Assembly: GCA_033838465.1 (NCBI GenBank)
Contig: JAJLKZ010000005.1
Span: forward strand, 242,129 to 306,128
Source of the DNA: Chromatiaceae bacterium
Lineage (GTDB): Bacteria; Pseudomonadota; Gammaproteobacteria; Enterobacterales; Alteromonadaceae
DNA length: 64,000 nucleotides
Reading direction: 5' to 3'
Under the pieces are notes generated by a model. That model was not told the DNA's origin and searched no databases. It saw only the letters and a list, made by a program, of their open reading frames with translations. Positions 3,405 to 22,134 of the stretch are shown here, piece after piece. Every line of letters begins with the position of its first letter. Positions within the stretch are counted from its first letter, which is position 1. Position numbers and translations under genes: made by a program.

Positions 3405-4258
3405 TAATACATCCGGTAGCTTATACCCAAAAACCAGGTCGTTACGTTATCGGTCCGCACCAGCGGGCTGTCAGTCATGGCATCATCCAGATGTAGGTAG
3501 CGAACAAAGGCCAGCAGCGACACGCGCTCAGAGACAGGCCGTTGCCAGCTTAAGCTCAGCTGTGGTTGCCAGCTGGGCTTGCCGTTATAGCGTGGTAAAT
3601 AAAACGGCTCATTATTGTCAATGCCGTAGTAAGTATCAATTAATTTAGCGCTTTTCCACAGCAGGTTGCCACTGAGCTGCCATTGGTTACCGGCTTGCTG
3701 CCAGGGCAAGCTGATACCGACACTGGCATGCTGGCCCTGATAGGTGTTACTGACATCCTGCCAAATGGCGGCTTTGACCAGCCATTGCCCGACTAAGCCA
3801 TCGAGTTGCAGGCCGGCATCGACAGCGGTAGGTCTTTTGCGGATTTCCCGCACTGACGCTTGTAATGGCCCTACTCTGTCGATACTGATTGACGGGCTGG
3901 AAAAGTTGCTGCTGCTAAACTGAAAGGCGTTACCACCAAACCACTTTTGAAAATGGCCTTTTTCCTGATTAAACTGCGCCACCAGGCTAAGCTGCCATTG
4001 TTCGTTCAGCGCCCAGCTGCTGCCCAGTTTGCCATTGTCAAAAAACCAGTGCTCGGCGTAATAATAAATGTCTGGCAGGATCACCAGCGGCAATGCTTCG
4101 CCACCATATAATGGGTTACTGCGCTGGCCATAGCCCAATGCCCAGCTCAGGTGCAGTGTTTGCTCTGTAGCACAGTTTTGCGCTGGCGCGCAGGTCGCTG
4201 TTGTTTCAGCCTTGGCGCTGCCAAAAAACAGCACCAGAAGTAAAATGCAATAACGCAA
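3404..4258 (-). CDS. MipA/OmpV-family outer-membrane protein
   Basis: Signal peptide (LLLVLFFGSAKA), alternating beta-strand pattern, YYGID motif and aromatic C-terminal residue (SYRMY). TTG start at 4258 preceded by AGGTGA. Confidence 0.75.
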   Translation of the reverse strand: MRYCILLLVLFFGSAKAETTATCAPAQNCATEQTLHLSWALGYGQRSNPLYGGEALPLVILPDIYYYAEHWFFDNGKLGSSWALNEQWQLSLVAQFNQEKGHFQKWFGGNAFQFSSSNFSSPSISIDRVGPLQASVREIRKRPTAVDAGLQLDGLVGQWLVKAAIWQDVSNTYQGQHASVGISLPWQQAGNQWQLSGNLLWKSAKLIDTYYGIDNNEPFYLPRYNGKPSWQPQLSLSWQRPVSERVSLLAFVRYLHLDDAMTDSPLVRTDNVTTWFLGISYRMY

Positions 4259-4510: not shown

Positions 4511-5539
4511 ATGAAAGGCAAAGCAACTTCATTCGATATTGCTTACATGGCCGGTGTGTCACAGTCTACTGTGTCGCGGGCATTGCGTAACAGCCCACAA
4601 GTGAATAAAGCCACGCGGGAAAAAGTGCAGGCTATTGCGCGACAGCTAAATTACAAAGTGGATAAAAACGCCAGTAATCTGCGTCAGCAGCGCAGTAGCA
4701 CTTTGGCATTATTGTTGTTTGAAGACCCCACTACGGATGAATCCTTAATAAACCCGTTTTTCCTCTCGATGCTCGGCAGCATTACCCGCGCCTGCGCCAA
4801 ACGTGGTCAGGACTTGTTGGTGTCGTTTCAGCAGCTAAGCGATGACTGGCACGCCGATTACGAAGACAGCAATAAAGCCGATGGCATTATTTTGCTCGGT
4901 TACGGCGACTACAAAGACTACGAAGAAAAGCTGGCCAAGCTACTGGCGCAGGAAACGCACTTTGTTTGCTGGGGCGCTGAAGTGCTGGGACACCCGGAAT
5001 TTACCCTGCGCAGTAATAACTTTGAAGGTGGCCGCTTAGCCGGCGAGCATTTATTGGCTACCGGCCATAAAAAATTTGCCTTTGTTGGTAATGCCTCTGA
5101 GGGCAGCCCGGAGTTTAGCGCTCGTTACCGCGGTTTTATTGATGCGTTGGCTAAAGTGGGCATTACGGAAAAGCAGGTGCCGCATTTTGATGCAATCTCT
5201 ACCGAGAGTGCCGGTGATACTGCCACTGAGCAGCTACTGGCTGCCGGCCATCAGGTAGATGCCATTTTCTGTGCCAGCGACCTGATTGCTATTGGCGTGA
5301 TGCGCTGCCTGAAGCGTCACAACCTGCGCGTGCCGGAAGACATTGCTGTGATGGGCTTTGATGATATTCCGGTCGCGTCTTTTGCCACACCGGCGCTCAG
5401 CACCATTCAGCAAGACACCACCCAGGCCGGTGAGCTGCTGGTCAATAACCTGCTGCAGCTAATTAATAACCAACCTATTACCGTAAACCAGATCGAGCCA
5501 AAGCTGATTATCCGTCAGTCTTGTGGCGCCCGTGGGTAA
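4511..5539 (+). CDS. LacI-family transcriptional regulator (candidate maltodextrin regulon repressor)
   Basis: N-terminal HTH (TSFDIAYMAGVSQSTVSRALRN) and a periplasmic-binding-protein-like sugar-binding core (VMGFDDIP). Confidence 0.9.
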   Translation: MKGKATSFDIAYMAGVSQSTVSRALRNSPQVNKATREKVQAIARQLNYKVDKNASNLRQQRSSTLALLLFEDPTTDESLINPFFLSMLGSITRACAKRGQDLLVSFQQLSDDWHADYEDSNKADGIILLGYGDYKDYEEKLAKLLAQETHFVCWGAEVLGHPEFTLRSNNFEGGRLAGEHLLATGHKKFAFVGNASEGSPEFSARYRGFIDALAKVGITEKQVPHFDAISTESAGDTATEQLLAAGHQVDAIFCASDLIAIGVMRCLKRHNLRVPEDIAVMGFDDIPVASFATPALSTIQQDTTQAGELLVNNLLQLINNQPITVNQIEPKLIIRQSCGARG

Positions 5540-7290
5540 AGCTGCTCTAACGCTTCACGTAGTGTAGGATAAAAGCTCAATACACCGTCTATCGGTTTAA
5601 TGCCGGCGCGGGCCAGGGTTTTTAGCGGCTGAAACTGCAAATCGGCAACCAGCAGCTCAGTGTTGTTTTTCTGACATTTACTGATCAATTTATTCAGCGC
5701 CGCCAGGCCGCCGGCATCCAGTAGCGGCACGCCATCCATGTACAGCACTATGCCTTTGCTATGGTCGGTTAGCCGGGCAATGTCGGCAAAAATCCGATCG
5801 GCAGCGGCAAAAAACAGTGGCCCGCTGATTTTAAGCACTTGCCAACCCTCAGGTACCGGCTGCTCTACCTGTTTGCGGTTGCTGCTGATATCGGTCACTT
5901 TGCTCATCTCAGCAATTTCTTTCACAAACAACATTGCCGCCAGCAGGATGCCGGCGGTGATGGCAATGACCATATCAAACAGCACGGTAAGGCTAAAGCA
6001 GGTAATAAACACCCAAATATCGCTGCGCGGGGCGGTTTTAAGCAAGTGCAGTGCCTTGGGGGCTTCGCTCATATTCCAGGCCACCATCAGCAGCAACGCC
6101 GCCAGCGCTGCCATTGGTACATAAGACAGTACCTTGGCCAGCAAGACTAAGCCCAGCAATACCACCACAGCATGCACCATGGCGGCGATAGGGGATTGGG
6201 CACCGGCTTTAAAATTGGCCGACGAGCGTGCCAGTGCGGCGGTGGCGGTAATGCCGCCGAAAAATGGCGTAATAATGTTACCCAAGCCCTGGCCGAATAA
6301 CTCACTGTTAGCGCTGTGGCGATGGCCTGACATACCGTCCAGCACCACCGCACAGAGCAGGGATTCAATGGCACCGAGCATGGCCATGGCAAAGGCGGCG
6401 GCGAGTAAATCTTTTGCCAGTTGCCAGCTAAAGCTCAGCATTTCACCCTCAGGCCCGGGGCGTAGCCAGGGCCAGTCGAATGAGGGTAAATAGGGTGGAA
6501 TACCCTTGGCGGTACTGCCATCAACAGCCGTGTAGCTAAAGCGTGAGCCGATGGTATCCAATTCAACACCCAGGCTCATCAGCAGCAGTGCTAATAAGGT
6601 ACCCAGCAGTAACGCCGGTAAATGCGCCGGTATCACCGTTTTTAATCTCGGCCATAACAGCATCACGGCCAATGTGCTGGCGGCGATCAGCAGACTAGGC
6701 CAGGAGAGCTGCGGTAAATGCTGGCCGAGGACAGCAATTTTTTCAGCAAAGTGTTCCGGCAGAGTGCCGATTGGCAAGCCAAAAAAGTCTTTGATCTGCA
6801 AGGTGGCGATGACCACAGCAATGCCAGCGGTGAACCCTAAGGTGACCGACTCCGGGATATACTCAATCAGCCGTCCTAGCCGAAGCATGGCCATCAGCAA
6901 CAGCAAAAAGCCCGACAGCACCGTAGCGATAAGTAAACCGCTTAAACCGTATTTAAGCGCCACCGGGTACAGAATAACGACAAAGGCCGCCGTCGGGCCG
7001 CTGATACTAAAGCGTGAACCGCCGGTTAGCGCAATCACAAAGCCGGCAATAATAGCGGTGTATAGGCCATATTGCGGCGCCACGCCCGAGGCAATTGCCA
7101 GCGCCATCGCCAGCGGTATAGCAATAATGCCAACGGTAATACCGGCCAGTAAATCCTTGCCAAGCTTATTCTGGTTATAGCCTTCGGCCAGCACCTCACG
7201 CAGCGCGTGGCCAATACGCAGGGAAAACAGATGGGAACGGTCAGACACCACAACTCCGCCACAGCAGAACAGGTGATGTGAGTTTAGCAA
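5515..7290 (-). CDS. dauA: SulP-family anion transporter with C-terminal STAS domain, DauA (YchM)-like
   Basis: Long collinear similarity to E. coli DauA as I remember it (DLLAGITVGIIAIPLAMALA, GGSRFSISGPTAAFVVILYP, AMLGAIESLLCAVVLDGM, PLFFAAA STAS). The true start is probably downstream of 7290. Its 3' end overlaps lacI-like convergently by 25 nt. Confidence 0.8.
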   Translation of the reverse strand: MLNSHHLFCCGGVVVSDRSHLFSLRIGHALREVLAEGYNQNKLGKDLLAGITVGIIAIPLAMALAIASGVAPQYGLYTAIIAGFVIALTGGSRFSISGPTAAFVVILYPVALKYGLSGLLIATVLSGFLLLLMAMLRLGRLIEYIPESVTLGFTAGIAVVIATLQIKDFFGLPIGTLPEHFAEKIAVLGQHLPQLSWPSLLIAASTLAVMLLWPRLKTVIPAHLPALLLGTLLALLLMSLGVELDTIGSRFSYTAVDGSTAKGIPPYLPSFDWPWLRPGPEGEMLSFSWQLAKDLLAAAFAMAMLGAIESLLCAVVLDGMSGHRHSANSELFGQGLGNIITPFFGGITATAALARSSANFKAGAQSPIAAMVHAVVVLLGLVLLAKVLSYVPMAALAALLLMVAWNMSEAPKALHLLKTAPRSDIWVFITCFSLTVLFDMVIAITAGILLAAMLFVKEIAEMSKVTDISSNRKQVEQPVPEGWQVLKISGPLFFAAADRIFADIARLTDHSKGIVLYMDGVPLLDAGGLAALNKLISKCQKNNTELLVADLQFQPLKTLARAGIKPIDGVLSFYPTLREALEQLYPRAPQD

Positions 7291-7395: not shown

Positions 7396-9117
7396 TTAAG
7401 GCGCGCTTTGCAGGATCAGCAAACCATGTGCTGCTAGCGTGCTGCCATCGAGGTCAAAGGCCCAGCTGGCGGTTAAACCGCGTTGCTCAACTGCGCTGAT
7501 ATCCGCCGCAGTGTCGCTCAGGTTTAATACAAACAGCGTTTTGCTGCCTTGTAGCTCGCGGGCAATCTGTACTATGCCGTTGGCCAGCTGTGTCACGTTA
7601 TAGCTGCCTGCAGTGCCCAGCTCTGGCCGCTGCTTTTTCTGTGTAATCAGCAGTTTATACAAATTCCACACAGAATCCGCTTGCGCCTGCTGCGCGCTCA
7701 CACTGCGATCCGTTTTGGCCAACTGCTCAGCCAGAAACGCCGGATACCAGTTCGGGAAGTTAGCGCCAAACAGCTCCAGCTGTTCTACCCAGCTGGTCGC
7801 ATTTTGGCTAAAACCAGCCTGGGTGCTGTTATCCCACAGCATAGGGGCACGTTTGTACACATCGTGGCCGGTGCCGCCCTGGGTTAAGCCAATTTCTTCA
7901 CCGTAGTAAATGTAGGGTGTGCCAGGTGAGCTAAATAGCATGGCTGCAGCCAGTTTGGCTTTGGCGTCGTGCTCAGCCAGCTGATAGGCAACCCGCTCCT
8001 GATCGTGGTTGGTTAAAAACGGCGCAAAGAAATGCAATGGCGCAACAGACTTTCGGCGCTGCGCTACGTTTTGCCATAACACCTGCGCATCTGCCACTTT
8101 GTTCGCATTCGACTGCATAGTGCCAAACTGGGCTTCACCGCTGGCGTCCGGTTTTAACAGGCCAAGAATGTTATAGCCCACTTCAAAGTCAAAGCCCTGA
8201 TCCAGGCCTTTACCCTCACCGAAATAACGCGCGGCAATCGGAATATCCACCCAGGCTTCGCCGACTAGGTAGGCCTGTGGGTTTACGCTTTTCACGTACT
8301 GGTTAAAGTCTTGCCAGTAGGCGATGGTTTCGTCAGTATCAGCCTGCGCCTCCGGGCCTCCCTCCATAGCAAAGCGCACGGCATCTAAACGGAAGCCCGC
8401 TACACCTTTATCCAGCCAGAATTTGGCCATTTTCTTCATTTCGGCTACCACATCAGGGTGGCGCAGGTTTACATCCGGCTGGCTGGCACCAAAGGCGGCG
8501 TAGTAGTAGGCGTTGCGTTGTGCGTTGTAATGCCACACGGCATCGGGTTTATCGTTGTCACTCCAGGCGTGGCCCCAGCCGCTGCCGGCCTCTGGCATAT
8601 CATCACGCCAGATAAAGTAATCTTTGTACGGTGCTTCACCGGCGGCTGAGCGTTTAAACCAGTCGTGCTCACTGGAGATATGGTTAATCACCAAATCCAG
8701 GATCACCTTCATGCCTTTGGCCTCAGCGGCTTTGATAAAAGCTTCAAACTCGGCCATAGTGCCGTAGTCACTTTCTACCTGATAAAACTCGGTAAAATCG
8801 TAACCGTGGTATGACGGTGCTTCAAACATAGGTGTTAGCCACAATGCTGTTACGCCAAGTTCCTGCAAATAGGGCAGTTTGGCGGTCATGCCGTTAAAGT
8901 CGCCGTGGCCATCGGCGTTGGTGTCATAAAAGCTGCGCGGCCAAATCTGGTAAAACACTGCATCCTGCCACCAGGGGCTGGTAGATTGCACTTCACTTTG
9001 CGTTGTTGGCGCCGGTGTTTGCTCAGCGGTGGTGCTGGTTTGCGGCTGACTGCTGTGTGGTTGACAGCCGGCTAATAAAACTGACAGCGCTAGTGCGCTT
9101 AGGCTAAAGCGTTTCAT
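7396..9117 (-). CDS. GH13 alpha-glucosidase / oligo-1,6-glucosidase-like lipoprotein
   Basis: GH13 conserved regions DLVINH, GFRLDAV (nucleophile), VGEAW (acid/base), TNHDQ. I prefer the ATG at 9117 (MKRFSLSALALSVLLAGC lipobox). The ORF-track start 9246 adds 43 implausible residues. Confidence 0.85.
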   Translation of the reverse strand: MKRFSLSALALSVLLAGCQPHSSQPQTSTTAEQTPAPTTQSEVQSTSPWWQDAVFYQIWPRSFYDTNADGHGDFNGMTAKLPYLQELGVTALWLTPMFEAPSYHGYDFTEFYQVESDYGTMAEFEAFIKAAEAKGMKVILDLVINHISSEHDWFKRSAAGEAPYKDYFIWRDDMPEAGSGWGHAWSDNDKPDAVWHYNAQRNAYYYAAFGASQPDVNLRHPDVVAEMKKMAKFWLDKGVAGFRLDAVRFAMEGGPEAQADTDETIAYWQDFNQYVKSVNPQAYLVGEAWVDIPIAARYFGEGKGLDQGFDFEVGYNILGLLKPDASGEAQFGTMQSNANKVADAQVLWQNVAQRRKSVAPLHFFAPFLTNHDQERVAYQLAEHDAKAKLAAAMLFSSPGTPYIYYGEEIGLTQGGTGHDVYKRAPMLWDNSTQAGFSQNATSWVEQLELFGANFPNWYPAFLAEQLAKTDRSVSAQQAQADSVWNLYKLLITQKKQRPELGTAGSYNVTQLANGIVQIARELQGSKTLFVLNLSDTAADISAVEQRGLTASWAFDLDGSTLAAHGLLILQSAP

Positions 9118-9219
9118 GGTATCCCCGTGCGTTTTTTCTGTTGCACCAGCGTAAAGCGCCGATGCACTGCTATGCTGAGTAAGCCTTGGTAATAACGCCA
9201 AAATAGTGCAACAACAAGA

Positions 9220-9233
9220 TGAATACGTATGCA
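9220..9233. promoter_or_regulatory. LacI-type operator candidate TGAATACGTATGCA
   Basis: One-pair variant of the 14-bp palindrome at 22198. It lies in the divergent GH13/MFS intergenic region, 103 nt from ATG 9117 and 87 nt from ATG 9320. Confidence 0.5.
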
Positions 9234-9319
9234 CAATTTTGCGCAAAATGGCTGGCTTCGTGTAGCTTAGACCGATCTGTTGCGCTTACACAGAATAATA
9301 AAACCTCCGGGGAGCGGGT

Positions 9320-10859: not shown

Positions 10860-11624
10860 CTAAAAAAACCGGCTCCAGGCTAAAAAGGCAGACACGCCGC
10901 TGTCGCGGTCGGTTAGCGGGCTGTTGGCGATGTTGTTGTCATACCAATGATACTCAACACCCAGCCTTGTCATGCCGCCAAAAAACACCGGTGTACTAAG
11001 GGCAAGGCCGGTGTGGTAGTTTACCGCTGCACCGGCTCGGTAAGCTGGCCTGTCGGCCGTGGCTTCGCTTTGGCGCACGCCGTAATAGTAATCTACCAGC
11101 TTGCTGGATGAGTAACTTACGCCCACTTCCGGGCTAACCTGCAAGGGGCCAAAGCGCAGGCCGTAGCTGAATTTAAGCTTGGCTTCCTGGCCGTTGGAGT
11201 TACCCAGCACATCGCTTAGCACTTCGGTATCCAGTGTCCAGTTATCTATGCGGTATTGCAGGCCAAGGCCGGCATCCAGCGAGCTTTTGCGCTTCATACC
11301 CACAAACACATCACTGTCGCCGTCGTCATAACCGGCAAAACGTGGTGCCAGTTTAGCGCTTAGGCTAACGTCATTCGCTTTGGCCAGCTCGTAGCTAACA
11401 AAAGGGCCGTATACCGACAGCTTCTCGCCGCGATACCCTACCAGCGGCAAGGGGATTACCCGGCGTTTATAGCCGCGGTAAATCTCCTGGTTTACCCCAA
11501 CGCCCACGCCATACAAAAAGCCCTGCGGCGGCTCGGCGCTGCGATTTTGTTGGGCAGTGGCTGTTGTGCTTGCAAGAATCAGGCTACAAACAGCAACAAG
11601 TGCGAGGGGGCGTAACACAGACAT
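10860..11624 (-). CDS. MipA/OmpV-family outer-membrane protein (second paralog)
   Basis: Signal peptide, YYYGV motif, beta-barrel-like alternation, C-terminal aromatic residue (WSRFF). AGGGAA SD before ATG 11624. Confidence 0.75.
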   Translation of the reverse strand: MSVLRPLALVAVCSLILASTTATAQQNRSAEPPQGFLYGVGVGVNQEIYRGYKRRVIPLPLVGYRGEKLSVYGPFVSYELAKANDVSLSAKLAPRFAGYDDGDSDVFVGMKRKSSLDAGLGLQYRIDNWTLDTEVLSDVLGNSNGQEAKLKFSYGLRFGPLQVSPEVGVSYSSSKLVDYYYGVRQSEATADRPAYRAGAAVNYHTGLALSTPVFFGGMTRLGVEYHWYDNNIANSPLTDRDSGVSAFLAWSRFF

Positions 11625-11704
11625 AAGGTTCCCTTTATTCAGTCAGATCTGGGCACAACTGTGCCATGGCAATAGCTTCATTACTGTGACAAAAGGTAAA
11701 CCGA

Positions 11705-12076
11705 TCAGTTAAGTGCATGCTGCGAGATATGTTTAGAGATCTCGACAATGGCGGTTTTACCGCTAAATTCAAAGCGCACTTTACCCAGCGATGAAAAGTA
11801 CAGCTCCAGCTCTGAGTCCAAATCAAAGGTACCGGAGGTTTCTACCGAATAGGCAACGATGTTTCTATACGGCATTGAGGTGAAGTCTTTTTTGCTGCCG
11901 GTTAAGCCCTGCACATTAACGGCAATAATGCGTTTATTGGTAAATACCACGCCATCACGCAGTGAGCTGTAACTGTCGATAACCTGCTCGTCTGGCAATA
12001 ACAGCGGCGCTACTTTGTCGGCATAGTCGGGGTTTTGTTTTAGTTTAAACACGGTTTTGTTATCAAAGTCGATCAT
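11705..12076 (-). CDS. YokE-like bacterial PH-domain protein
   Basis: 123 aa. The pattern DGVVFTNKRIIAVNVQGLTG...YRNIVAYSVETSG...LELYF matches the bPH (YokE-type) fold as I remember it. ATG is 2 nt after the ParE stop, with AAGGAA SD inside the toxin 3' end. Confidence 0.6.
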   Translation of the reverse strand: MIDFDNKTVFKLKQNPDYADKVAPLLLPDEQVIDSYSSLRDGVVFTNKRIIAVNVQGLTGSKKDFTSMPYRNIVAYSVETSGTFDLDSELELYFSSLGKVRFEFSGKTAIVEISKHISQHALN

Positions 12077-12078
12077 GG

Positions 12079-12384
12079 CTATTCCTTGTGCAGTGTTTCG
12101 GGTAAGTGTAGCAAGCGTTCACTGCGCCAGACGCGGATTAGGCTGATGCAATCGGTGTCACGCAAATACACCACACGAAATGGCTGCAGGATAATTTCAC
12201 GTATATTTGGCTGGTTAAACTCCGGCACCATCCGGCCGGAATCCGGGTGTTCTGTCAGGCGTTGTGCGCTGGCGATAATATTGCTAACAAAGCGTTGGCC
12301 AATTTGTGGCACACCTTGCTCCAGATACCAGGCTTTTATCGCCAGCAAATCTGACAATGCAGATTGTGCAAGCTCTAAGCGCAC
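12079..12384 (-). CDS. type II toxin, RelE/ParE family
   Basis: 101 aa. Core L.EHPDSGR.VPE....IREI...PFRVVY typical of ParE_toxin. GTG start directly abuts the antitoxin stop. Confidence 0.8.
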   Translation of the reverse strand: MRLELAQSALSDLLAIKAWYLEQGVPQIGQRFVSNIIASAQRLTEHPDSGRMVPEFNQPNIREIILQPFRVVYLRDTDCISLIRVWRSERLLHLPETLHKE

Positions 12385-12654
12385 TTAGCTAATACCCAAC
12401 AGCTGTTTTGCCTGTTCTGCACTTAATGTATTGCCGTTACGAATATCCGCCAGTCCGGCCGCTACGGCCTTAACAAAACGCAATTCTTCAGCGGTGCTCT
12501 CATAATCTTCTAATGCTTGTACCACCGCCACGCCCCGGCCACGGCTGGTTAATAGCACCGGCCGGTGGGTTGTGTTGGTTTGTGTAACCACCTTGCCGGG
12601 GTTTATTTTTAAATCCGACAATGGCACCACATCTTCAGAAAATTTGGTTTGCAT
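12385..12654 (-). CDS. type II antitoxin, Phd/YefM family
   Basis: 89 aa. The N-terminal VPLSDLK....VV.....HRPVLLTSRGRGVAVVQALEDYE motif is typical of Phd/YefM. Confidence 0.8.
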   Translation of the reverse strand: MQTKFSEDVVPLSDLKINPGKVVTQTNTTHRPVLLTSRGRGVAVVQALEDYESTAEELRFVKAVAAGLADIRNGNTLSAEQAKQLLGIS

Positions 12655-12688
12655 ACTCAGCTCCTGCTGTGAACAGTAGCCATTAATA

Positions 12689-12706
12689 GCACCTGTTAAC
12701 AGGTGC
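12689..12706. promoter_or_regulatory. perfect 18-bp palindrome GCACCTGTTAACAGGTGC, candidate operator of TA module 1
   Basis: Read directly, about 35 nt upstream of ATG 12654. Type II TA operons are classically autorepressed at palindromes overlapping their promoter. Confidence 0.55.
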
Positions 12707-12804
12707 CGTCAAGAAGGGGCGACTGCCGGGTTCTTTTAACGCCTAGCGCATGTGTGTGAACCCGTGAGCGTCGCAGAGGCCGATGGCTCGGATTGACGCA
12801 ATTG

Positions 12805-13107
12805 TTAGCTGTTTCCAAGCATAAACGCACGAAGCTGTCGCTCTTCCCGCATAACAAATAGCACAAATACCCGCTGTGCTTCCTGACGATAAAAAATGCG
12901 ACAGGGCGGCACCACCACTTCCCGATATACCGAATCAGGTAGCTCAGGCGGTATGCGCCCGGAGGCGGGGAAATGCTCCAAACGTCCTATCTTGTTGAAA
13001 ACGTCTTGCACCAGATTGCGTGCGGCAGCGGGCTTATCCAAAGCAATGTATTCCGCAATGGCGTCTAATTGTTGCAGCGCTGGCTCAGTCCAGATTACTT
13101 CAGCCAT
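12805..13107 (-). CDS. type II toxin, RelE/ParE family (second, divergent copy)
   Basis: 100 aa with L.HFPASGRIPPE....YREVVVPPCRIFY. Overlaps the upstream antitoxin by 13 nt. Confidence 0.8.
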   Translation of the reverse strand: MAEVIWTEPALQQLDAIAEYIALDKPAAARNLVQDVFNKIGRLEHFPASGRIPPELPDSVYREVVVPPCRIFYRQEAQRVFVLFVMREERQLRAFMLGNS

Positions 13108-13352
13108 TTACGCATTTTCTCTTGCGCTTCAGTTTGGCTATATGTTTTGGCTTCAAGTACCGCACGCTCGCCACGCGCTAGCCCTTCAAGCAGCGCCAGG
13201 CGACGCTGCATAAATTCATAATCCTGTACGTCAACCAGGTAGGCCGACGGCTGGCCATGCTCTGTAATCAGCACCGGCTCTTTTGACGCGTGCAAATCGG
13301 CCAGAATTTTGGTCGCCTGACGTTTTAGGTTAGTCACTAGCTCAACTTTCAT
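13095..13352 (-). CDS. type II antitoxin, Phd/YefM family (second copy)
   Basis: Motif KEPVLITEHGQPSAYLVDVQDYE. I prefer ATG 13352 (GGGTGA SD) over the ORF-track TTG at 13370. Confidence 0.8.
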   Translation of the reverse strand: MKVELVTNLKRQATKILADLHASKEPVLITEHGQPSAYLVDVQDYEFMQRRLALLEGLARGERAVLEAKTYSQTEAQEKMRKWLK

Positions 13353-13376
13353 AGGCTCACCCTGTTTCAAACACAG

Positions 13377-13396
13377 AGTGACACTATAGTGTCACT
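13377..13396. promoter_or_regulatory. perfect 20-bp palindrome AGTGACACTATAGTGTCACT, candidate operator of TA module 2
   Basis: All 10 pairs verified base by base. It lies 25 nt upstream of ATG 13352. Confidence 0.6.
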
Positions 13397-13458
13397 TCGT
13401 GGGCAAAGCAATTTGACCTAACTTTGACTTAAATGGCGGCATGAAATGCCGTCCAGTT

Positions 13459-13977
13459 TCAAGTTTTTGTTAAATTGGATTCAATAGTCTTTTTTAAGAT
13501 TGTTTGAATCTGTTCAATAGTTAACGAATTACAAAGCCAACAATATGAAATCTCTTCTGTAATCAACAAACTTTTATTCGTTGGTTCGAGAGATATGACT
13601 AATTCATCGTATTTATAATAATCTCGCTCAGATTTATTAATCCATGCACCCATTTGAATGTTCGAGCTTTGAGAGTTGTCTTCATGTATAACTCTAATTT
13701 GACGCTTAATTGTTGGAACCTCACAGTAATAAATCGGATTTCCATCTTCTTCATTACTTATATTTGAAAACTCATGGTACGGGATAAATGGCTTATGAAG
13801 CGTATAATCAAATGAGGTGTTAATATTTAGTTTATTATATAGTCTTTTTTTAATTTCATGCTCTGTACCTCTATTTATCAGGATTTCAAGCATGAATTTA
13901 TACCAAAATGTTCTTAACTCATACAAAGATGAAGCGATATCATCAACGAGAGGATAATCGAAATTCTTAATCTTCAA
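13459..13977 (-). CDS. hypothetical protein, 172 aa, aromatic-rich, no recognisable motif (AT-rich cassette, gene 2)
   Basis: Long ORF in AT-rich DNA, where random ORFs are rare. TTG start at 13977 preceded by GAGGA-N7 and overlapping the upstream ORF by 11 nt. No signal peptide or TM segment. Confidence 0.6.
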   Translation of the reverse strand: MKIKNFDYPLVDDIASSLYELRTFWYKFMLEILINRGTEHEIKKRLYNKLNINTSFDYTLHKPFIPYHEFSNISNEEDGNPIYYCEVPTIKRQIRVIHEDNSQSSNIQMGAWINKSERDYYKYDELVISLEPTNKSLLITEEISYCWLCNSLTIEQIQTILKKTIESNLTKT

Positions 13978-14314
13978 ATGCAGTTCCTCGTCTGACCTCT
14001 ATATCAACACGCTCAGAACGTGTATTTTTCACTCGATATGTTTTACTAACTTGAGCTGATACACCGGTTGTTTTTGGCGAGTTATTTATATATTTTTCGA
14101 CTTTATCAAACTCATTAGTTCTTAAGTTTAGATCATGTTTTTTTAACTTCGCTTTTAGCGAAGATAATAAACAAATACCTGATCTTTTATCGAAGCGTTG
14201 ATCTGTACTCCAACTTTCAGATTCTTCCAAGGCTTCGCCTTGTGCTTGTATTCTACCGCGATTCTTCATATTCAATTTAACAATATTATTAGAAGGCAAA
14301 ATCCCTGCTTTCAC
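13967..14314 (-). CDS. hypothetical small basic protein, 115 aa, no recognisable motif (AT-rich cassette, gene 1)
   Basis: GTG start at 14314 preceded by AAGGGAGA-N8. My hand count gives 23 K/R against 15 D/E. Same strand as the 172-aa ORF and overlaps it. Confidence 0.55.
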   Translation of the reverse strand: MKAGILPSNNIVKLNMKNRGRIQAQGEALEESESWSTDQRFDKRSGICLLSSLKAKLKKHDLNLRTNEFDKVEKYINNSPKTTGVSAQVSKTYRVKNTRSERVDIEVRRGTAFED

Positions 14315-14567
14315 CGCGGGATTCTCCCTTCTATGCTGTTTTTACATTCCGCTAAACTAACCAACATTTTTCACTAAATCAAATACATATTACCTAAGCA
14401 GCTTTTGCGTGCTGCGTGAAAGCGGTGTGTAAGCTTGCAATTAACTTATTAACAAAAATAGCACTGTTGCACAGTGGTTTATACAGTATTTGTGTGCAGT
14501 GTTGTGGCTAAATAATAACAGGGCTTTTAGAAATCACAGCAGCTGACGCCGCTGTGGTTGTTTAATT

Positions 14568-16466
14568 CTAACGAATATCCAGCACCAAGGTGCCGCGGGC
14601 TGGCACGGTAAGTTGTTTATCCAGCTTAATACTGTTGCCGGTAATAACCTCAGTGGCGGTTTTGCCTGGTGGCAGCACTTCATTAAAACGGGCTAAGTCC
14701 AGCGTTACCGGCTGGTGTTGTTTATTCATTACCACCATCACCGTTTGCTGGTTATTGTAACGAAAGTAAGTATAGGTGCCGTTATCGGGGGCGAAGTGCA
14801 TTAGCTTGCCGCTGTGAATAGCGCTGGCGGTTTTGCGCCAGTTTAGTAAGGCTTTTACCAGCTGCTGCGTGCTTTGCTGGGTGGAGTTTAAGCCCTGGCC
14901 GGTAAAGGCGTTGACCTTATCGCCGGCCCAGCCGCCGGGAAAATCGGCACGTACTTTGCCATCGTCGCGCACTTTTGGGCTTTGCATGGCAATTTCAGTG
15001 CCGTAAAGCAGCTGTGGTATACCGCGCATGGTGGCCAGGTAGCTGATGGCCATACGGTATAAATCCATATCCTCATTTAACAAAGAGAAAATACGCGCCG
15101 TGTCGTGGTTGCCTTCAAAAATCACCAGGTTAAACGGGTCGGCATAGACATGGTCGTTGCTGAGCATTTCGTATAAGCCGATCCAGCCGCCGTTCCAGCT
15201 TTCCTCTGTGATTAAGGCTTTTAGCAGGGTGTCGTACAGCGGGAAGTCCAGCATGCTGGGCGTGTGCGACACATAGCCATCTTTATTTTGCTTGCCGCGC
15301 TGCCAGTACGACACAATCAGCGGGTTGGGGCTCCACTCTTCGCCGACAATATTAAAATTGGGGTACTCCAGCATCAGCCGGCGTGCCCATTCGGTTAAAA
15401 AGGCTTTGTCGGCATAGCTGTAGGTATCTTCGCGGATGCCTGACAGGTTGGCATATTCCACCCACCAGATGCTGTTTTGGATAAGGTAGGTGGCTAAAAG
15501 TGGATGGCGCTGGTTTAAATCGGGCATGGTGTCGACAAACCAGCCATCGGTAAATTGCGCCGTATCGACCTTACTGGCGTACGGATCCTGAATGGTGCTG
15601 CGGTTATGGTTGGTGCCAACAAACGCCGCGCCGGTTAAAAAAGCCTGATTATTCAGCCAATTGGTGTCTGGCAAGTCGTTTAGCCACCAGTGCTGATGGC
15701 CAATATGGTTAACAATAATATCCTGAATAACCTTAATACCCAGCTTATTGGCCTTAGCCACCAGCTCGCGGTATTGCGTATTGCTGCCAAAGCGCGGATC
15801 TACTTTGTATAAGTCGGTGGCGGCATAGCCGTGGTAGGAATAGGCGCTTTGGTTGTTTTCGGTCAGCGGCGTCGGCCACATGGCGGTAAACCCCATGTCG
15901 GCCAAATAGGGCAGCGCTTTGGCCATGCCGGCCAAATCACCACCGTGACGGCCGCTGTCATCACTGCGGTTAGCAGGCTCGAGCATGCCGGGCAGGGTGT
16001 CGTTAGTCGGGTCACCGTTGGCAAAGCGATCGGGTGTAAGCAGGTAAATCACATCAGAGGGGTTAAAGCCTTCACGCTGCGCCGAGCCAGGGCGGCGCGT
16101 TAACAGCGGGTAGGCCAGCGTCTGCTGGCTATCGGCGCAGTTAAGCTGAAGCGGTAAGTCGCCGGGGGCAATATCGGCAGCCAGCGTCAGGTTAATAAAC
16201 AGGTAATTTGGGTTAGCGGTAGTATTGGTGCTGCTAAGTGTGGCGCCTTTATAATCCAGGCTAACGTTGCACTGTGCCAGCTTATCGCCGTGTAGCATCA
16301 GTTGCAGCTGCGGGTGTTGCATACCGGCCCACCAGTTAGCCGGCTCTATGCGTTTAACCGTTTGTGCTGCAGCCGTGCAGCCAAAGAGCAAGGCAGTGCA
16401 GGCATATGCCAGTTGGCGTATAAAGGCATAAAGGCGGGCGTTCGGCATAGGGTTCTCCTGCATCAA
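14568..16466 (-). CDS. GH13 cyclomaltodextrinase / alpha-amylase-like secreted enzyme
   Basis: Signal peptide. GH13 regions DIIVNH, GIREDT, VGEEW, GNHD. The N-terminal extra domain is as in cyclomaltodextrinases. The start may be an internal Met (MPNARLY). Confidence 0.85.
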   Translation of the reverse strand: MMQENPMPNARLYAFIRQLAYACTALLFGCTAAAQTVKRIEPANWWAGMQHPQLQLMLHGDKLAQCNVSLDYKGATLSSTNTTANPNYLFINLTLAADIAPGDLPLQLNCADSQQTLAYPLLTRRPGSAQREGFNPSDVIYLLTPDRFANGDPTNDTLPGMLEPANRSDDSGRHGGDLAGMAKALPYLADMGFTAMWPTPLTENNQSAYSYHGYAATDLYKVDPRFGSNTQYRELVAKANKLGIKVIQDIIVNHIGHQHWWLNDLPDTNWLNNQAFLTGAAFVGTNHNRSTIQDPYASKVDTAQFTDGWFVDTMPDLNQRHPLLATYLIQNSIWWVEYANLSGIREDTYSYADKAFLTEWARRLMLEYPNFNIVGEEWSPNPLIVSYWQRGKQNKDGYVSHTPSMLDFPLYDTLLKALITEESWNGGWIGLYEMLSNDHVYADPFNLVIFEGNHDTARIFSLLNEDMDLYRMAISYLATMRGIPQLLYGTEIAMQSPKVRDDGKVRADFPGGWAGDKVNAFTGQGLNSTQQSTQQLVKALLNWRKTASAIHSGKLMHFAPDNGTYTYFRYNNQQTVMVVMNKQHQPVTLDLARFNEVLPPGKTATEVITGNSIKLDKQLTVPARGTLVLDIR

Positions 16467-17833: not shown

Positions 17834-20236
17834 TTAGCGGATTTGTATTTGTTGCTTATCCGCCTGCCAATCCAGTTTTACCTTAAGCTGACGGCTGGCT
17901 TTATCGTACCAGGCCACATTTTGCATACGGTTAAACCGCGCTTGTTGCGGCACCAGCTGGATATAACGGCCATCAACACTGATATGCGAAGGCCTGGCGT
18001 TCTGGTTATGCACCACCAGGGTCAGCTCGCGGCTGGCTGGCATACCTTGGTACTGGCCGCTGCGGCGCAGTTCAAACTTTTGTTCATCAGCTTGCTTTAA
18101 GTAGTAAAAGTTCAGCAGTTCAAACTGACCTTTAGCAACCGCGTCCGGCGTTTTACCATCATCTTCATACATCTTGCCTTTGGCGCACTCTACACTGCTA
18201 TCAGCATAGAAATGCAATGTCAGTTTGCGGCTGCTGTACTCGCGGGTATTCGCCATTGGCGCCACCATTGGCACAAAGCTGCCGGCTTTTACCAGCACCG
18301 GCAGGGTATCAATGCTTACCGGAATGTCGGTCTTGCCTGTGCCTGCATAGCGCTTGCCACTAAAGTAATCAAACCAGACGCCGCCTGGCAGCTGCACCGG
18401 CCAGTTCTTCACGCCCGGCTCGGTAACCGGCGCCACCAAAAAGGCGTCGCCCCACAGGTAGCTGTTGTTTTCATCCATCAGTGCCGGGTTTTGCTCATCC
18501 AGCAGAAACAGCGGCCGCATCAGCGGTAAGCCGCTTTGGCTGTGCTGATAGGCCAGGGTGTAGTTGTATGGCAGCAGCTGATAACGCAGGTTTAGCCAGG
18601 GGCGCAGGGTTTCAATGGTGTCGTTATCGTGAAACACCACTTCCGGCGCAATGTGTTCCTGTGCATGTGGCCGGTACACTGGCTGGAATACGCCATATTG
18701 CAGCCAGCGGATATACAGCTCTTTATCAAACGTTTCACCGCCGGCAAAACCGCCCAAATCTGAGTGAATGTAGCCAAAACCAAACAGACCCATGCTCAGC
18801 GCCAGCTCAACCTGCGGCTTTAGGCCGCCCCAGCTGCGGTCAACATCGCCGGTCCAGGGCACCATGCCAAAGCGCTGGCTGCCGGGGGCGCCTGCGCGCA
18901 TCATAATAAAGGGCCGCTGCTCGGGGAAGTCGCGGCGCATGCCGCTGTGCACCATCTCAGCCCACTGATGGCCAAAGGCGTTATGTACTTCGTTCGCCAT
19001 GCCGATGGCGTGCACGGTATCGTCCGGGTGTACTTCCGGCTCGCCCAAATCGCCCCACACACCGGCCACACCCTGTTCGGCCAGACCTTTATAAATTTGC
19101 CAGAACCAGTCACGTGCTTTGGGGTTAAACACATCAATTAAGCCGGTATTGCCAAAGTAAAAGTCGAAGGTTTTTGGTTTGCCATCCAGGCCCGGCGCAA
19201 TGGCGCCGGCCTCTACCGCCTCTTGCCAGCGTTTAGAGCTGGTCAGTACAAAAGGCTCGGTGACTAAAATAGTGTTGATGCCATTGGCTTTAAGATCGGC
19301 CAGCATTTTTTCTGGCTGAGGGAAGGCGTTGCTGTCCCAGGCCAGGTTGCCCATATGGCCCTGAATATCCGGGCCAAACCAGTACAGATCGATGACTAAG
19401 GCATCCAGCGGTAGCTGCAAGTCGGCAAAGCGTTTTACCACGTCACGCACCTCGGCTTCATTACGGTAGCCAAAACGTGACGCATAGTTACCCAGTGTCC
19501 AGCGCGCCGGTAGCGGCGGCTTGCCGGTTAAGCTGGTGTAGTTGTCGATAATCGCCGGGTAGTTATCGCCGGCTACCAGCACATAGCTGCTGCGGCCACC
19601 CTCGGCACTAAATTGCATCACATCAGCCTTGGTTGCGCCTAAATCGGCTTCACCTTTGGCGCTGTTATCAAACAGCAGCAAATACTTATTGCTCGACAGC
19701 ACGGCTGGCAGGCTGAAGTACATCTGGCTTGACTCGGTGCTGTAGCCATAATGCGCTTTGTTATACAGCGGGAATTTATGGCCACGGCGGTCCATGCCCA
19801 GCACGCGCTGGCCACCACCCAACAGCTTCTCGCCAGCGGTTAGCGCAAAGCGAAAACCATGGTTGCCGTCTTGCTTAAAGTAACCTTGCTGTTCGGACAA
19901 CAGCAGCTCATCGCCGCGATAATAGCTAAGATGCAGTGGTGATTTATTAATGGCCACGCTAAGGCTGGCGCTACTGACACGCAGGCTTTTGTCGCTGTCA
20001 GCGACATTCAGATCCAGCGGCTGTGGTTGCTGGCTAATGCTAAAAGACGGCAGTTGTTTTACACCAGACGGCTGATAAAAGGCTTCAACCACATCATGCT
20101 GGTAAAACGTCAGGCTAACCTGGCCCTCATCGGTTTGAATATGCAGCGTATTACCGTCGAGCTGATGTGCCTGATACTGCGCCGCCGCACTGGCAAAGGC
20201 GCAGCAAAACGTAATTAACGCAAACACTAACTTCAT
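17834..20236 (-). CDS. GH31 alpha-glucosidase
   Basis: 800 aa with signal peptide. GH31-like blocks LDALVIDLYWFG, GVWGDLGEPE, PWTGDV. ATGA overlap with the upstream GH13 gene. Confidence 0.85.
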   Translation of the reverse strand: MKLVFALITFCCAFASAAAQYQAHQLDGNTLHIQTDEGQVSLTFYQHDVVEAFYQPSGVKQLPSFSISQQPQPLDLNVADSDKSLRVSSASLSVAINKSPLHLSYYRGDELLLSEQQGYFKQDGNHGFRFALTAGEKLLGGGQRVLGMDRRGHKFPLYNKAHYGYSTESSQMYFSLPAVLSSNKYLLLFDNSAKGEADLGATKADVMQFSAEGGRSSYVLVAGDNYPAIIDNYTSLTGKPPLPARWTLGNYASRFGYRNEAEVRDVVKRFADLQLPLDALVIDLYWFGPDIQGHMGNLAWDSNAFPQPEKMLADLKANGINTILVTEPFVLTSSKRWQEAVEAGAIAPGLDGKPKTFDFYFGNTGLIDVFNPKARDWFWQIYKGLAEQGVAGVWGDLGEPEVHPDDTVHAIGMANEVHNAFGHQWAEMVHSGMRRDFPEQRPFIMMRAGAPGSQRFGMVPWTGDVDRSWGGLKPQVELALSMGLFGFGYIHSDLGGFAGGETFDKELYIRWLQYGVFQPVYRPHAQEHIAPEVVFHDNDTIETLRPWLNLRYQLLPYNYTLAYQHSQSGLPLMRPLFLLDEQNPALMDENNSYLWGDAFLVAPVTEPGVKNWPVQLPGGVWFDYFSGKRYAGTGKTDIPVSIDTLPVLVKAGSFVPMVAPMANTREYSSRKLTLHFYADSSVECAKGKMYEDDGKTPDAVAKGQFELLNFYYLKQADEQKFELRRSGQYQGMPASRELTLVVHNQNARPSHISVDGRYIQLVPQQARFNRMQNVAWYDKASRQLKVKLDWQADKQQIQIR

Positions 20237-22134
20237 GGTTGCAGCTCCAGTATTACTGAGGCCAGCGGGGCAAGTTCAACCGCCACTGTGCCCACGCCGT
20301 TGGTTACGCTAAGGCTGCTTTCGCCGCCGTTTAGCTTGTCGCTTAGCCGGTATTGGCCATCGGCCAGCTGCCACTTGCTGATAAGCGTAGCCGGTACAGT
20401 GAGGTTAAAACTGACCGCTGCTTCACTATTAAAGTGGCTGACAATCAGCAGCTTTTGCTCCGCACTGTAGCGGGCAAAGGCCAATTGCTGTTCGCTGTAG
20501 GCGGTGCCGGCTGCGAGATTAGCGCTGTGCAGCTCGGTGTAGCCGCCCATTAAGGCGGGGGCGTTGGCGCTAAAGCTGAGCAGTTTTTCGTAATAAGCGT
20601 GCAGCGCTTTATCCTCAGCACTTAGTGCGCCGCCATCAAACTTACCGTCGTTCATCCACTTTTGGTGCTGCGGCACACCCCAGTAATCAAAGATAGTGGT
20701 GCGGCTAGCTTTACCAAAGCCGGCATCCTCTGCACCTGGCTCACCAACATGCTGGCCAAAGTACAGCATGGTAGGCGAGGTGCTGATGGTAGTAGACACC
20801 ACCATGGCCGGCAGGCCTTTTTTCGCATCGCCGGCAAACTCCGGCGCGGCAATGCGCTGCTCGTCATGGTTTTCTAAAAAGTGCAGCATATGATGCTCAA
20901 TATCGGCCATGCGCTGCTGGGTTTCTACCAGTGCCGAGGTGGGCCCTTTGCCCTGCATCACCAGCTTCAAGCTATCGTAGAATTCCACCTTGTCGTACAG
21001 GTAATCCATTTTGCCAAGCTTAAGGTAATCGCGATACAAGTGCGGCTGATACACCTCAGCCAGTAAAAAAGCGTTAGGGTTTGTCTGTTTAATATGCGAG
21101 TTTAAGTAGCTCCAGAACTCGACCGGTACCATCTCGGCCATATCGTAACGAAAGCCATCGACGCCTTTGGCCAGCCAGTACTGGGTAATATCGCGGAATT
21201 TAAGCCAAGAGTCTGGCACGTCCTTGCCTTGCCAGAAGGCATAATGCGCCGGCCAGTCTTTTTCAGCGTAATCGCTGGGTAAACGATCGAAGTCGTAACT
21301 GCCGTCTGGGCGCACGCCGTAATTAATTTTTACCGTTTCATACCAGTCATCAAAGGCAGGCTGGGCAGCGCGTGAGCCATTACCGGTCCACTTGGCCGGG
21401 TTTTCCAAAAACATGCCATCGGCCGCCGGGTGGGCCTCGCCGCCTAGTACTTGATAGTCAGCTGGCCACTGCGGCACGTTAAAAGCCTGGCCCGGCACAT
21501 AGTAAAAGTTATTATCACGCGCGTATTCGACGCTGGTGTCGTCATTGGCGCCAAAGTCACTGACGCCCGCTGGGTTTGACAGCGACTGATACTGGCGCGC
21601 TACATGGTTGGGTACGATATCGATAAGTACCTTCATGCCGTGCTGATGCGTGCGGGCAATCAGTTGCTCAAACTCCGCCAGGCGGTTGGCCGGGTCAGTG
21701 GCTAAATCGGGGTTTACGTTGTAGTAGTCTTTCACGGCATAAGGCGAGCCGGCGCGGCCTTTAATCACATCCGGGTCATCATGGCTGATTCCATAGGCGC
21801 TGTAATCACGCACCAGGGCATGGTGTGGTACCCCGGTATACCAAATATGGCTAACGCCCATGGCTTTAATGGCGCTGAGTGCTTCAGGCGTAAAGTCGGC
21901 AAATTTACCGACACCGTTTTGCTCCAGTGTGCCCCAGGGCTGATTGGTGCTGCTTTTGTTACCAAATAAGCGGGTAAATACCTGATACACCACCACCTTG
22001 CCGTCTGCTGCAGGCGCTGCAACGGCTGGCTGCTGCTCGTCTGGTGCTGTGAGGGTGGGCTCTGGTGCTTTGCCGCAAGCCAGTAACAGGCTGCCGGCAA
22101 GCGTTAAGGTGATTAAGGTGGCTGTGTTTTGCAT
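20233..22134 (-). CDS. GH13 alpha-amylase-family lipoprotein
   Basis: Lipobox LLLAC. GH13 regions DIVPNH, GFRYDMAEM, LAEVY, ENHDEQ. Confidence 0.85.
   Translation of the reverse strand: MQNTATLITLTLAGSLLLACGKAPEPTLTAPDEQQPAVAAPAADGKVVVYQVFTRLFGNKSSTNQPWGTLEQNGVGKFADFTPEALSAIKAMGVSHIWYTGVPHHALVRDYSAYGISHDDPDVIKGRAGSPYAVKDYYNVNPDLATDPANRLAEFEQLIARTHQHGMKVLIDIVPNHVARQYQSLSNPAGVSDFGANDDTSVEYARDNNFYYVPGQAFNVPQWPADYQVLGGEAHPAADGMFLENPAKWTGNGSRAAQPAFDDWYETVKINYGVRPDGSYDFDRLPSDYAEKDWPAHYAFWQGKDVPDSWLKFRDITQYWLAKGVDGFRYDMAEMVPVEFWSYLNSHIKQTNPNAFLLAEVYQPHLYRDYLKLGKMDYLYDKVEFYDSLKLVMQGKGPTSALVETQQRMADIEHHMLHFLENHDEQRIAAPEFAGDAKKGLPAMVVSTTISTSPTMLYFGQHVGEPGAEDAGFGKASRTTIFDYWGVPQHQKWMNDGKFDGGALSAEDKALHAYYEKLLSFSANAPALMGGYTELHSANLAAGTAYSEQQLAFARYSAEQKLLIVSHFNSEAAVSFNLTVPATLISKWQLADGQYRLSDKLNGGESSLSVTNGVGTVAVELAPLASVILELQP

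Follow-up and report, generated by a model that had tools for sequence, protein, structure and literature searches.

The 64,000-nucleotide stretch analyzed here (contig JAJLKZ010000005.1 of a Chromatiaceae bacterium, positions 242,129 to 306,128 of the forward strand; hereafter, the window) holds on its minus strand an AT-rich element with two overlapping genes, here named A and B, which had been put forward as a possible toxin/antitoxin, toxin/immunity or phage-defence pair. The core of this element (14280-13422) is an integron gene cassette. The product of gene A is identified by its relatives as a C-terminal toxin domain of polymorphic toxins, and that of gene B, by its position after toxin genes, as the cognate immunity protein. 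As a whole, the element is read, with a probability of about 0.7, as a cassette of the SALIN (single attC site lacking an integron integrase) or CALIN (cluster of attC sites lacking an integron integrase) type, whose polymorphic-toxin-derived toxin–immunity pair would resemble a toxin–antitoxin (TA) module. One 0.9-kb element would then join the mobility of integron cassettes with polymorphic-toxin domains and with selfish modules of a TA-like kind. It represents a known kind of element and not a new category of system, and the fold of its toxin family is uncharacterized. The integron-cassette identity, with an attC site and a genomic GTT insertion, is the main structural point that the original prediction missed. 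The components, in the direction of the minus strand, are:

14358-14362, minus strand: left GTTAG with the host GTT core, an attG-like secondary site, from the comparison with the empty site of a relative (L096)
14281-14361, minus strand: hairpin unit of about 81 nt without an open reading frame (ORF), between GTT cores; absent from the L096 empty site
14275-14281, minus strand: 5' core GTTAAAT (GTTRRRY) with the boundary G|TTAAAT of the A-B cassette; complement of the attC R''
13967-14269, minus strand: gene A, toxin domain of 100 aa, start ATG 14269 (an in-frame alternative, GTG 14314, would give 115 aa, 13967-14314)
13459-13977, minus strand: gene B, predicted immunity protein of 172 aa, TTG start
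13416-13475, minus strand: attC, 60 nt, with R'' ATTTAAC at 13475-13469 (in the last codons of gene B) and R' GTTAGGT at 13422-13416

An integron cassette at a genomic GTT site

The block is set apart by its composition. In 300-nt windows, the GC content is 0.31-0.35 at 13350-14400 and about 0.52 on either side (about 32% for the block, compared to about 52% for the genome), while the GC content at third codon positions is 0.22 in gene A and 0.27 in gene B, versus 0.64 in the adjoining amylase gene, the upstream neighbor, which encodes a cyclomaltodextrinase-type GH13 enzyme. These values agree with the abrupt break in composition described earlier, and the two minus-strand ORFs, with a shared end of 11 nt, were found where they had been placed.

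The attC site is an imperfect palindrome of the form RYYYAAC...GTTRRRY. Its inner parts L'' (ACTTGAAA) and L' (ATTTAAGT) pair with each other around a central hairpin, GGCAT-TTC-ATGCC, and the full order is ATTTAAC-AAAA-ACTTGAAA-CTG-GACGGCATTTCATGCCGCC-ATTTAAGT-CAAA-GTTAGGT. The site was identified by hand and by folding rather than with the IntegronFinder covariance model; as single-stranded DNA, its two strands fold with z = -3.2 and -4.6, better than all or nearly all shuffled sequences. In a cassette array (L003, from JGI), the site before gene A shares 87% identity with it, and the central hairpins show a compensatory change from T-A to C-G. The R'' core ATTTAAC is exactly complementary to the 5' core GTTAAAT, as would be expected of a formerly circular cassette opened at G|TT. 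This combination of GTTAAAT and ATTTAAC also flanks the homologous gene pairs in the array L003 and in Vibrio vulnificus (L004), the latter a superintegron segment with at least 12 VVR attC repeats, where the A-B pair forms one cassette between the repeats at 5235-5357 and 6176-6298. DNA similarity to two further loci (L001 and L002, 76%) is confined to 14282-13463, and the 5' leader before ATG 14269 comprises 11 nt.

The closest homologous pair is found in L001 (6001-6808; JGI Ga0310142_00003, 420 kb), where it lies between the AttH and hydrolase genes with a GC content of 0.34 in a genome of 0.61. In this copy, the 5' core is mutated from GTT to GTC and R' is unrecognizable, which gives it the look of a cassette insertion in decay; the host is unrelated.

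The site before insertion is preserved in L096, a metagenomic contig from a close relative, with amino acid identities of 91% for the amylase and 98.8% for ThrE. Its gene order is ThrE, amylase, Phd1-ParE1, Phd2-ParE2, bPH, and MipA, with genes A and B absent. The empty site of L096 reads ...AAATGTTGGTTAG|CTCAAATTGCTTTGCCC, that is, ...GGTTAG|CTCAAATTGC, while the junctions in the window read ...AAATGTTGGTTAG|TTTAGCGG... on the left and ...AAGTCAAAGTTAG|GTCAAATTGCTTTGCCC on the right, the latter at GTTAG. The insert therefore spans about 940 bp (14357-13418, equivalently 14361-13422), with GTTAG on both flanks, and the block (14361-13418) is foreign DNA placed at a GTT site just 3' of the cyclomaltodextrinase gene, which supports the horizontal acquisition of the pair. 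Judged from this comparison, the insertion is recent and precise. Integron integrases are reported to insert cassettes at genomic attG sites with the consensus 5'-GWT-3', yielding SALINs (bioRxiv 10.1101/2022.09.11.507474). The two genomes form a natural before/after pair for the arrival of a cassette at a genomic GTT, which is unusually clean empty-site evidence outside an integron.

Between the left GTT core and the cassette lies the ORF-less unit, which is outside the DNA homology with L001, L002, and L003. It extends to the G of G|TTAAAT and consists for the most part of a strong hairpin (14333-14290; DNA fold of -13.5 kcal/mol, z = -2.8) with a Shine–Dalgarno (SD) sequence, AAGGGAGA, in its stem and GTG 14314 in its loop. 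This unit may be a degenerate attC or an ORF-less cassette that was co-excised with the A-B cassette.

Cassettes outside integrons have been described as SALINs and CALINs, for which IntegronFinder is available (PMC4889954). Like them, the element has one clear attC, is bounded by G|TT, and was inserted at a genomic GTT (GWT); a close relative retains the empty site, and homologous cassettes occur in true arrays (L003 and L004). No integrase (Phage_integrase) was found among the 20 neighboring or candidate window ORFs scanned against Pfam, so that the insertion is of the SALIN or small-CALIN type, as arises from attC x attG recombination by IntI, rather than a complete integron. Unlike the SALINs and CALINs described, it includes a second unit upstream of the cassette, the co-inserted ORF-less hairpin of about 81 nt.

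A polymorphic-toxin domain and its predicted immunity gene

Genes A and B belong to two large families, both present in Bacteroidota, Proteobacteria, Cyanobacteria, and Spirochaetes. For gene A, 24 close homologues of about 100 aa each were found, and a profile search of 1.84 billion representatives yielded at least 788 clusters, of which 419 had E <= 1e-10. For gene B, there are just three word-level homologues, although a profile built from the neighbors of gene A homologues recovers 376 homologous clusters. Compared to the closest homologues (L001), dN/dS (the ratio of nonsynonymous to synonymous substitution rates) is 0.10 for gene A and 0.09 for gene B. Given these hundreds of homologues and the dN/dS values of about 0.1, both ORFs are judged to be real genes under purifying selection, in agreement with the earlier view that they are not noise. 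In this way, a role is given to two large families of 'hypothetical proteins'.

In all gene A homologues, the start coincides with ATG 14269, which sets the family length at 100 aa. GTG 14314, with the SD sequence AAGGGAGA at 14330-14323, had been proposed as the start; this candidate was rejected, as its extension is unconserved, lies outside the cassette, and falls in the hairpin. On the other hand, the proposed TTG 13977 start of gene B is well founded, because the 28 N-terminal residues that it adds are kept in distant homologues. Both proteins have the properties first ascribed to them, that of gene A being basic (pI 9.7-9.8) and that of gene B acidic (pI 5.6) and rich in aromatic residues (F/W/Y = 12%).

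Across 140 representative domains, the near-invariant residues of the gene A family are R4, G5, R6, Q8, Q10, and G11 in strand 1, E15, S17, and W20 in strand 2, L38, R50, then R87, D89, and E91 in strand 4, and finally G95, A97, and F98; all family-invariant residues are kept in the window protein. The motifs of gene B are F.Y..F...Y...FW, DGNPIY, LRVIQE, GAW, ELVISLE, and W. As anticipated, no recognized family accounts for either protein: genes A and B have no match in Pfam, PADLOC, PHROGs, or NCBIfam, and scanning all members of the family alignments against the family libraries produced noise only. In PADLOC-DB v2, nothing was found at E <= 1 for either gene, profile searches against PDB sequences returned nothing, and the motif strings are absent from the literature searched. 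The name 'RaiA' given by JGI to a gene B homologue (P0061) is spurious and has no Pfam support.

The toxin assignment comes from the proteins in which the gene A domain is found. Among the best 150 representatives, the domain stands bare in 89 and with a C-terminal tail in five more, while in 55 it is C-terminal in a longer protein and in four it is internal. The internal cases include a 262-aa fusion (P0262), in which the gene A domain (residues 5-100) is joined in one chain to a gene B-like domain, and two tandem A-A proteins (P0195 and P0258). Copies linked to Rhs proteins, first seen as gene A inside very long ORFs in crude gene calls of 80 genome loci, occur in Pseudomonas (L015, L016, L025, L036, L044, and L048), Xenorhabdus santafensis (L018), and Winslowiella (L014), as well as in Variovorax (L074), Burkholderiales (L032), Lysobacterales (L054), and Bacteroidales (L070). 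In them, the domain boundary lies directly behind the Rhs DPxGL motif (...DPLGLAAH|RGRIQAQG), as in the C-terminus ...YQYAPNPMGWIDPLGLAAH|RGRIQAQG...ERVDIEVITGRAFVE*, where the asterisk is the stop. Pfam recognizes RHS_repeat, RHS, and DUF6531 in the carriers of L025 and L018, with a PAAR_motif in L018. Another carrier is a 2323-aa SpvB+FG-GAP+RHS (Tc-like) protein ending in the gene A domain, and further ones hold eCIS_core, Transglut_core, Peptidase_C14, Hint-like C-termini, or signal peptides. Since the domain forms the extreme C-terminus of many carriers, after DPxGL, gene A is assigned to the C-terminal toxin domains of polymorphic toxins.

In Moraxellaceae (Psychrobacter and Faucicola; L033:2263-4335 and L065:5840-8294), the carrier to which the toxin domain is fused has the repeated motif GW.GTGY..DP.SG.GAY.IGGG.DGG and hydrophobic stretches after the repeat. 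This carrier has no Pfam match and several paralogous fragments lie close by; it may represent an uncharacterized family of delivery proteins with orphan modules. Many stand-alone homologues from Bacteroidota, in turn, extend beyond the G.AF motif by a hydrophobic C-terminal tail of 15-20 residues (L031, L051, L053, L055, L056, L062-L064, L067, L087, and L091, from Saprospiraceae and other Bacteroidota; P0165 and P0172), which suggests tail-anchored membrane versions of the toxin.

The immunity assignment of gene B derives from its position. According to a hidden Markov model of gene B, its family is encoded immediately 3' of gene A at 82 of the 92 loci, which agrees with the expectation that homologues would co-occur as an adjacent pair; the remaining loci are mostly contig ends, or have divergent or alternative partners. 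In every genomic context inspected, gene B is on the same strand as gene A and directly follows it, and this synteny is kept across phyla. The Rhs genes are directly followed by a shorter gene B version of 115-125 aa with the motifs F.NYL.D..Y..LE, DGNPIFSA, and LRVVLDE. With a homologue of Rhs/PAAR C-termini in gene A and the family of gene B in the immunity position, the earlier idea of an orphan toxin–immunity pair is upheld.

Immunity genes typically show tandem copies and swapped partners. Gene B is present in tandem copies in L038, L056, and L068, and the whole A-B pair is doubled in L091. In cyanobacteria and in a metagenome-assembled genome (MAG) of Competibacteraceae, the partner of gene A is an unrelated small protein (L069:8327-9094, L088:8323-8715, and L084:8318-8545) with the motifs TYELWQ.EDGSYDFFP...EFLGWG.Y.P and no Pfam match, probably a second immunity family. 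Neighbor clustering revealed no third gene recurring at A-B loci.

In three Saprospiraceae loci (L005, L006, and L009, from Aureispira and a related MAG), the A-B pair is fixed immediately 3' of rpmI-rplT, encoding the ribosomal proteins L35 and L20. As the GC content of the pair equals that of the genome, this pair looks old and vertically inherited.

Predicted mode of action and role in the host

The AlphaFold2 model of gene A (pLDDT 96.9, pTM 0.88) consists of a beta-hairpin, three helices, and a second beta-hairpin, while that of gene B (pLDDT 80.9, pTM 0.80) shows two long helices, a four-stranded sheet, and two helices. Foldseek searches of the PDB with both models gave nothing at E < 0.1, with TM-scores up to 0.39; the best matches had E = 0.75 and TM-scores of 0.33-0.39 for gene A, and E = 0.16 and a TM-score of about 0.2 for gene B. 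Low-scoring matches to TTM triphosphatases, OSR1/SPAK CCT domains, and Top7 were discarded. Against BFVD, gene A matched uncharacterized phage proteins only (E >= 0.02, TM-score of about 0.5).

In the model of gene A, alternating residues of the four-stranded sheet (R4/R6/Q8/Q10, E15/S17, and R87/D89/E91) point to the same side, where, together with R50, they form an invariant polar group; this exposed, charged face looks like an active or binding site. The pattern would fit, with low confidence, a metal-dependent enzyme whose substrate contains phosphate, either nucleic acid or nucleotide. A confidently modeled small toxin domain with a candidate active site and no known fold relative is tractable for the study of a new toxic mechanism.

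In the cell, gene A is expected to act as a cytoplasmic toxin, a location proposed because neither gene B and its relatives nor the free-standing gene A holds a signal peptide. Gene B would neutralize it through direct binding. The 11-nt overlap lends support to the translational coupling proposed earlier, by which immunity would be produced together with the toxin. The free-standing pair would then behave as a TA or addiction module that stabilizes its carrier DNA, such as cassette arrays or plasmids, and would additionally protect against incoming Rhs toxins of the gene A family. On a conjugative IncFII plasmid of Pantoea, a stand-alone pair adjoins repA, and others are found on Citrobacter and Enterobacter plasmids. 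Plasmid positions such as that beside repA are classical settings of addiction modules. For the host of the window, the addiction role is putative.

Each of the parts has precedents. As in the Rhs/PAAR polymorphic toxins of type VI secretion systems (T6SS), the gene A domain is C-terminal after DPxGL, is swapped among carriers, and is followed by a gene of the gene B family. Unlike them, however, the window protein consists of nothing but the toxin domain, which has a start codon of its own and lacks any delivery or trafficking domain, carrier, or Rhs-core remnant (the 15-aa extension from the GTG is unconserved). It also differs from the classical orphan module 3' of an rhs locus, as there is no rhs gene among the window ORFs examined, and from the catalogued toxin domains, as the gene A domain belongs to no Pfam toxin family.

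TA cassettes are known from sedentary chromosomal integrons, e.g., those of Vibrio (PMC13108822, PMC11023631). Like these cassettes and plasmid addiction modules, the A-B pair is a two-gene cassette of toxin and neutralizer, found elsewhere beside repA and here beside ParE/Phd modules. Unlike TA cassettes, it has the toxin first, no detected DNA-binding antitoxin domain, and no promoter inside the cassette; and unlike a classical TA family, the gene A family derives from inter-bacterial weapons.

A further parallel is found in the work of Nachmias et al., who screened polymorphic toxins for new C-terminal domains without Pfam annotation, used short stand-alone homologues to validate PT1-9, and also validated five of the immunity genes next to them (bioRxiv 10.1101/2021.10.19.465003). 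As in these PT/PIM pairs, gene A is a short (<150 aa) C-terminal toxin domain without Pfam annotation, with stand-alone homologues and an adjoining immunity gene. Among them, PT9-PIM9 resembles the gene A family by description, being present in Cyanobacteria, Bacteroidetes, and Proteobacteria (including Xenorhabdus) and fused to PAAR. PT9 from Cedecea neteri causes nucleoid condensation and mini-cells (bioRxiv 10.1101/2021.10.19.465003; 10.64898/2026.07.31.742022); it has neither DNase nor rRNase activity in vitro and is inactivated by K54A (10.64898/2026.07.31.742022). K54 in a Pantoea homologue coincides with K41 of the window protein, but the gene A family, unlike PT9, for which K54 is needed, has no Lys conserved across the family. 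The identity of gene A with PT9, compared by description only, is possible but doubtful.

Several points weigh against the reading of the element as a cassette with a TA-like pair. The recombinase behind the insertion is not among the window ORFs examined, and the 81-nt upstream unit is just loosely attC-like. No recognizable promoter or SD sequence is present in the 11-nt leader before ATG 14269, and a promoter scan of the region gave four matches versus 5.1 expected, i.e., none beyond chance; expression in the host is therefore uncertain, which weakens the addiction role. Moreover, TA cassettes of chromosomal integrons normally bring their own promoters (PMC13108822). The toxin-first order and the lack of a detected DNA-binding domain in gene B (none in Pfam, and only a weak PHROGs match to a helix-turn-helix domain, E = 0.047) are atypical for type II TA systems. 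The proposed chemistry of gene A follows from a conservation pattern, with no significant PDB fold match, and the toxicity, binding, and expression of the pair are predictions made from the sequence.

The lack of a promoter and the 11-nt leader would also fit a different reason for keeping the cassette, namely that gene B protects the host against Rhs or otherwise delivered toxins of the family while gene A is a silent or barely expressed passenger. Pseudomonas, Xenorhabdus, and Variovorax are among the bacteria in which Rhs proteins with a gene A C-terminus are common, tandem copies of the immunity gene exist at some loci, and orphan immunity genes are known to guard against non-self effectors (PMC10539506). 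However, purifying selection on gene A is as strong as on gene B (0.10 versus 0.09), gene A retains each invariant residue, and the best 150 representatives are mostly intact stand-alone toxins accompanied by gene B rather than lone immunity genes, so that this explanation, while deserving serious thought, is considered rather unlikely. A role in anti-phage abortive infection, where a phage would free toxin A from B and the cell would be killed or arrested, appears distinctly unlikely. Integron cassettes do often carry compact defence systems (bioRxiv 10.1101/2024.07.02.601686), the pair adjoins TA modules in the window, another copy (L007) is near SLFN_AlbA_2/HATPase_c_4 and PIN genes, and plasmid pairs are near genes with FRG and DGQHR domains. 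Nevertheless, PADLOC and PHROGs give no match, the phage genomes searched contain none, and no sensor component is evident; the original prediction had looked to neighborhoods enriched for defence genes, but clustering of the neighbors identified no recurrent family, defence or other, and the contexts are mostly housekeeping or Rhs loci.

Elsewhere, PAAR-Rhs, Tc-like, and eCIS carriers deliver the gene A domain, and some homologues have signal peptides or hydrophobic C-terminal tails. This raises the option that free-standing gene A is itself exported as a cargo effector, for instance, as a non-covalent load of a T6SS spike, with gene B providing self-immunity. This is held to be very improbable, since gene A in the window has no signal peptide, no transmembrane segment, and no known T6SS cargo marker in Pfam, the window ORFs examined include none longer than 931 aa and no Rhs, VgrG, or PAAR match, and the stand-alone pairs on plasmids and in integron arrays are unlinked to secretion genes. 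As for chance ORFs or functionless remnants in decay, the pair does sit in AT-rich foreign DNA, and the L001 copy, with its GTC in place of GTT, points to a decay of mobility there; this explanation is effectively refuted by the conservation of both genes, with homologous clusters numbering at least 788 for gene A and 376 for gene B, dN/dS of about 0.1, confident AlphaFold2 models, and synteny across phyla.

A bolder reading holds that gene A represents a new toxin fold and mechanism, marked by an invariant R-x-R-x-Q-x-Q / E-x-S / R-x-D-x-E face, serving both as a delivered weapon (Rhs/T6SS, eCIS, and Tc-like) and, as a bare domain with its immunity protein, as an integron/plasmid addiction or abortive-infection module. 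Its target could be one so far unknown for small toxins, for example, the nucleotide pool, or DNA topology if gene A were PT9. This reading is tentative and considered unlikely; if true, the element would be a natural case of integron cassettes spreading inter-bacterial weapons into non-integron sites.

The insertion spot and its surroundings

Downstream of the pair, on the same strand, Pfam identifies two Phd-ParE modules followed by a bPH_1 protein gene. Palindromes, perfect or near-perfect, are located upstream of both Phd genes:

13377-13396, minus strand: palindrome AGTGACACTATAGTGTCACT upstream of Phd1, in host DNA, kept in the cassette-free L096
13095-13370, minus strand: Phd1
12805-13107, minus strand: ParE1
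12690-12707: palindrome GCACCTGTTAACAGGTGC upstream of Phd2
12385-12654, minus strand: Phd2
12079-12384, minus strand: ParE2
11705-12076, minus strand: bPH_1 protein gene

The position of the pair upstream of two ParE/Phd modules, one of the observations behind the original prediction, is thus confirmed by Pfam. Its use as evidence of a defence islet is weakened, because the modules are present in the cassette-free L096 and were already there before the cassette arrived. The palindromes are probably the autoregulatory operators or promoter regions of the Phd-ParE modules, each of which would form an independent transcription unit by virtue of its own palindromic operator. The possibility that these modules are cassettes themselves was discarded, as the RYYYAAC/GTT-like cores after ParE1 and bPH fold no better than shuffled sequences (z = +0.7 to -0.2).

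Related genomes hold different contents at this spot (11700-14570 in the window). In L097 and L174, bPH is found directly, together with a small lipoprotein-like ORF; L098 holds Phd2-ParE2 only; L096 contains both TA modules; and the window contains both modules plus the A-B cassette. This series suggests that the spot 3' of the cyclomaltodextrinase gene is an accessory hotspot that grows stepwise, with the A-B cassette as its newest module. Since bPH directly follows the amylase region in the relatives without TA modules, these modules appear to have been inserted just 5' of a pre-existing bPH gene. The bPH_1 start lies 2 nt past the ParE2 stop (TAGCCATG, 12076-12084), and the modules may now be co-transcribed with it.

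Across the 64 kb of the window, no RNA family reached the Rfam gathering threshold. The wider surroundings (14568-16466, 7396-9246, and 17834-22134) comprise a GH13-family cluster with a LacI regulator and an MFS transporter, that is, a maltodextrin utilization region, which also includes a further large ORF (17834-20236). Two MipA paralogues are encoded in the window, at 3404-4258 and 10860-11624.

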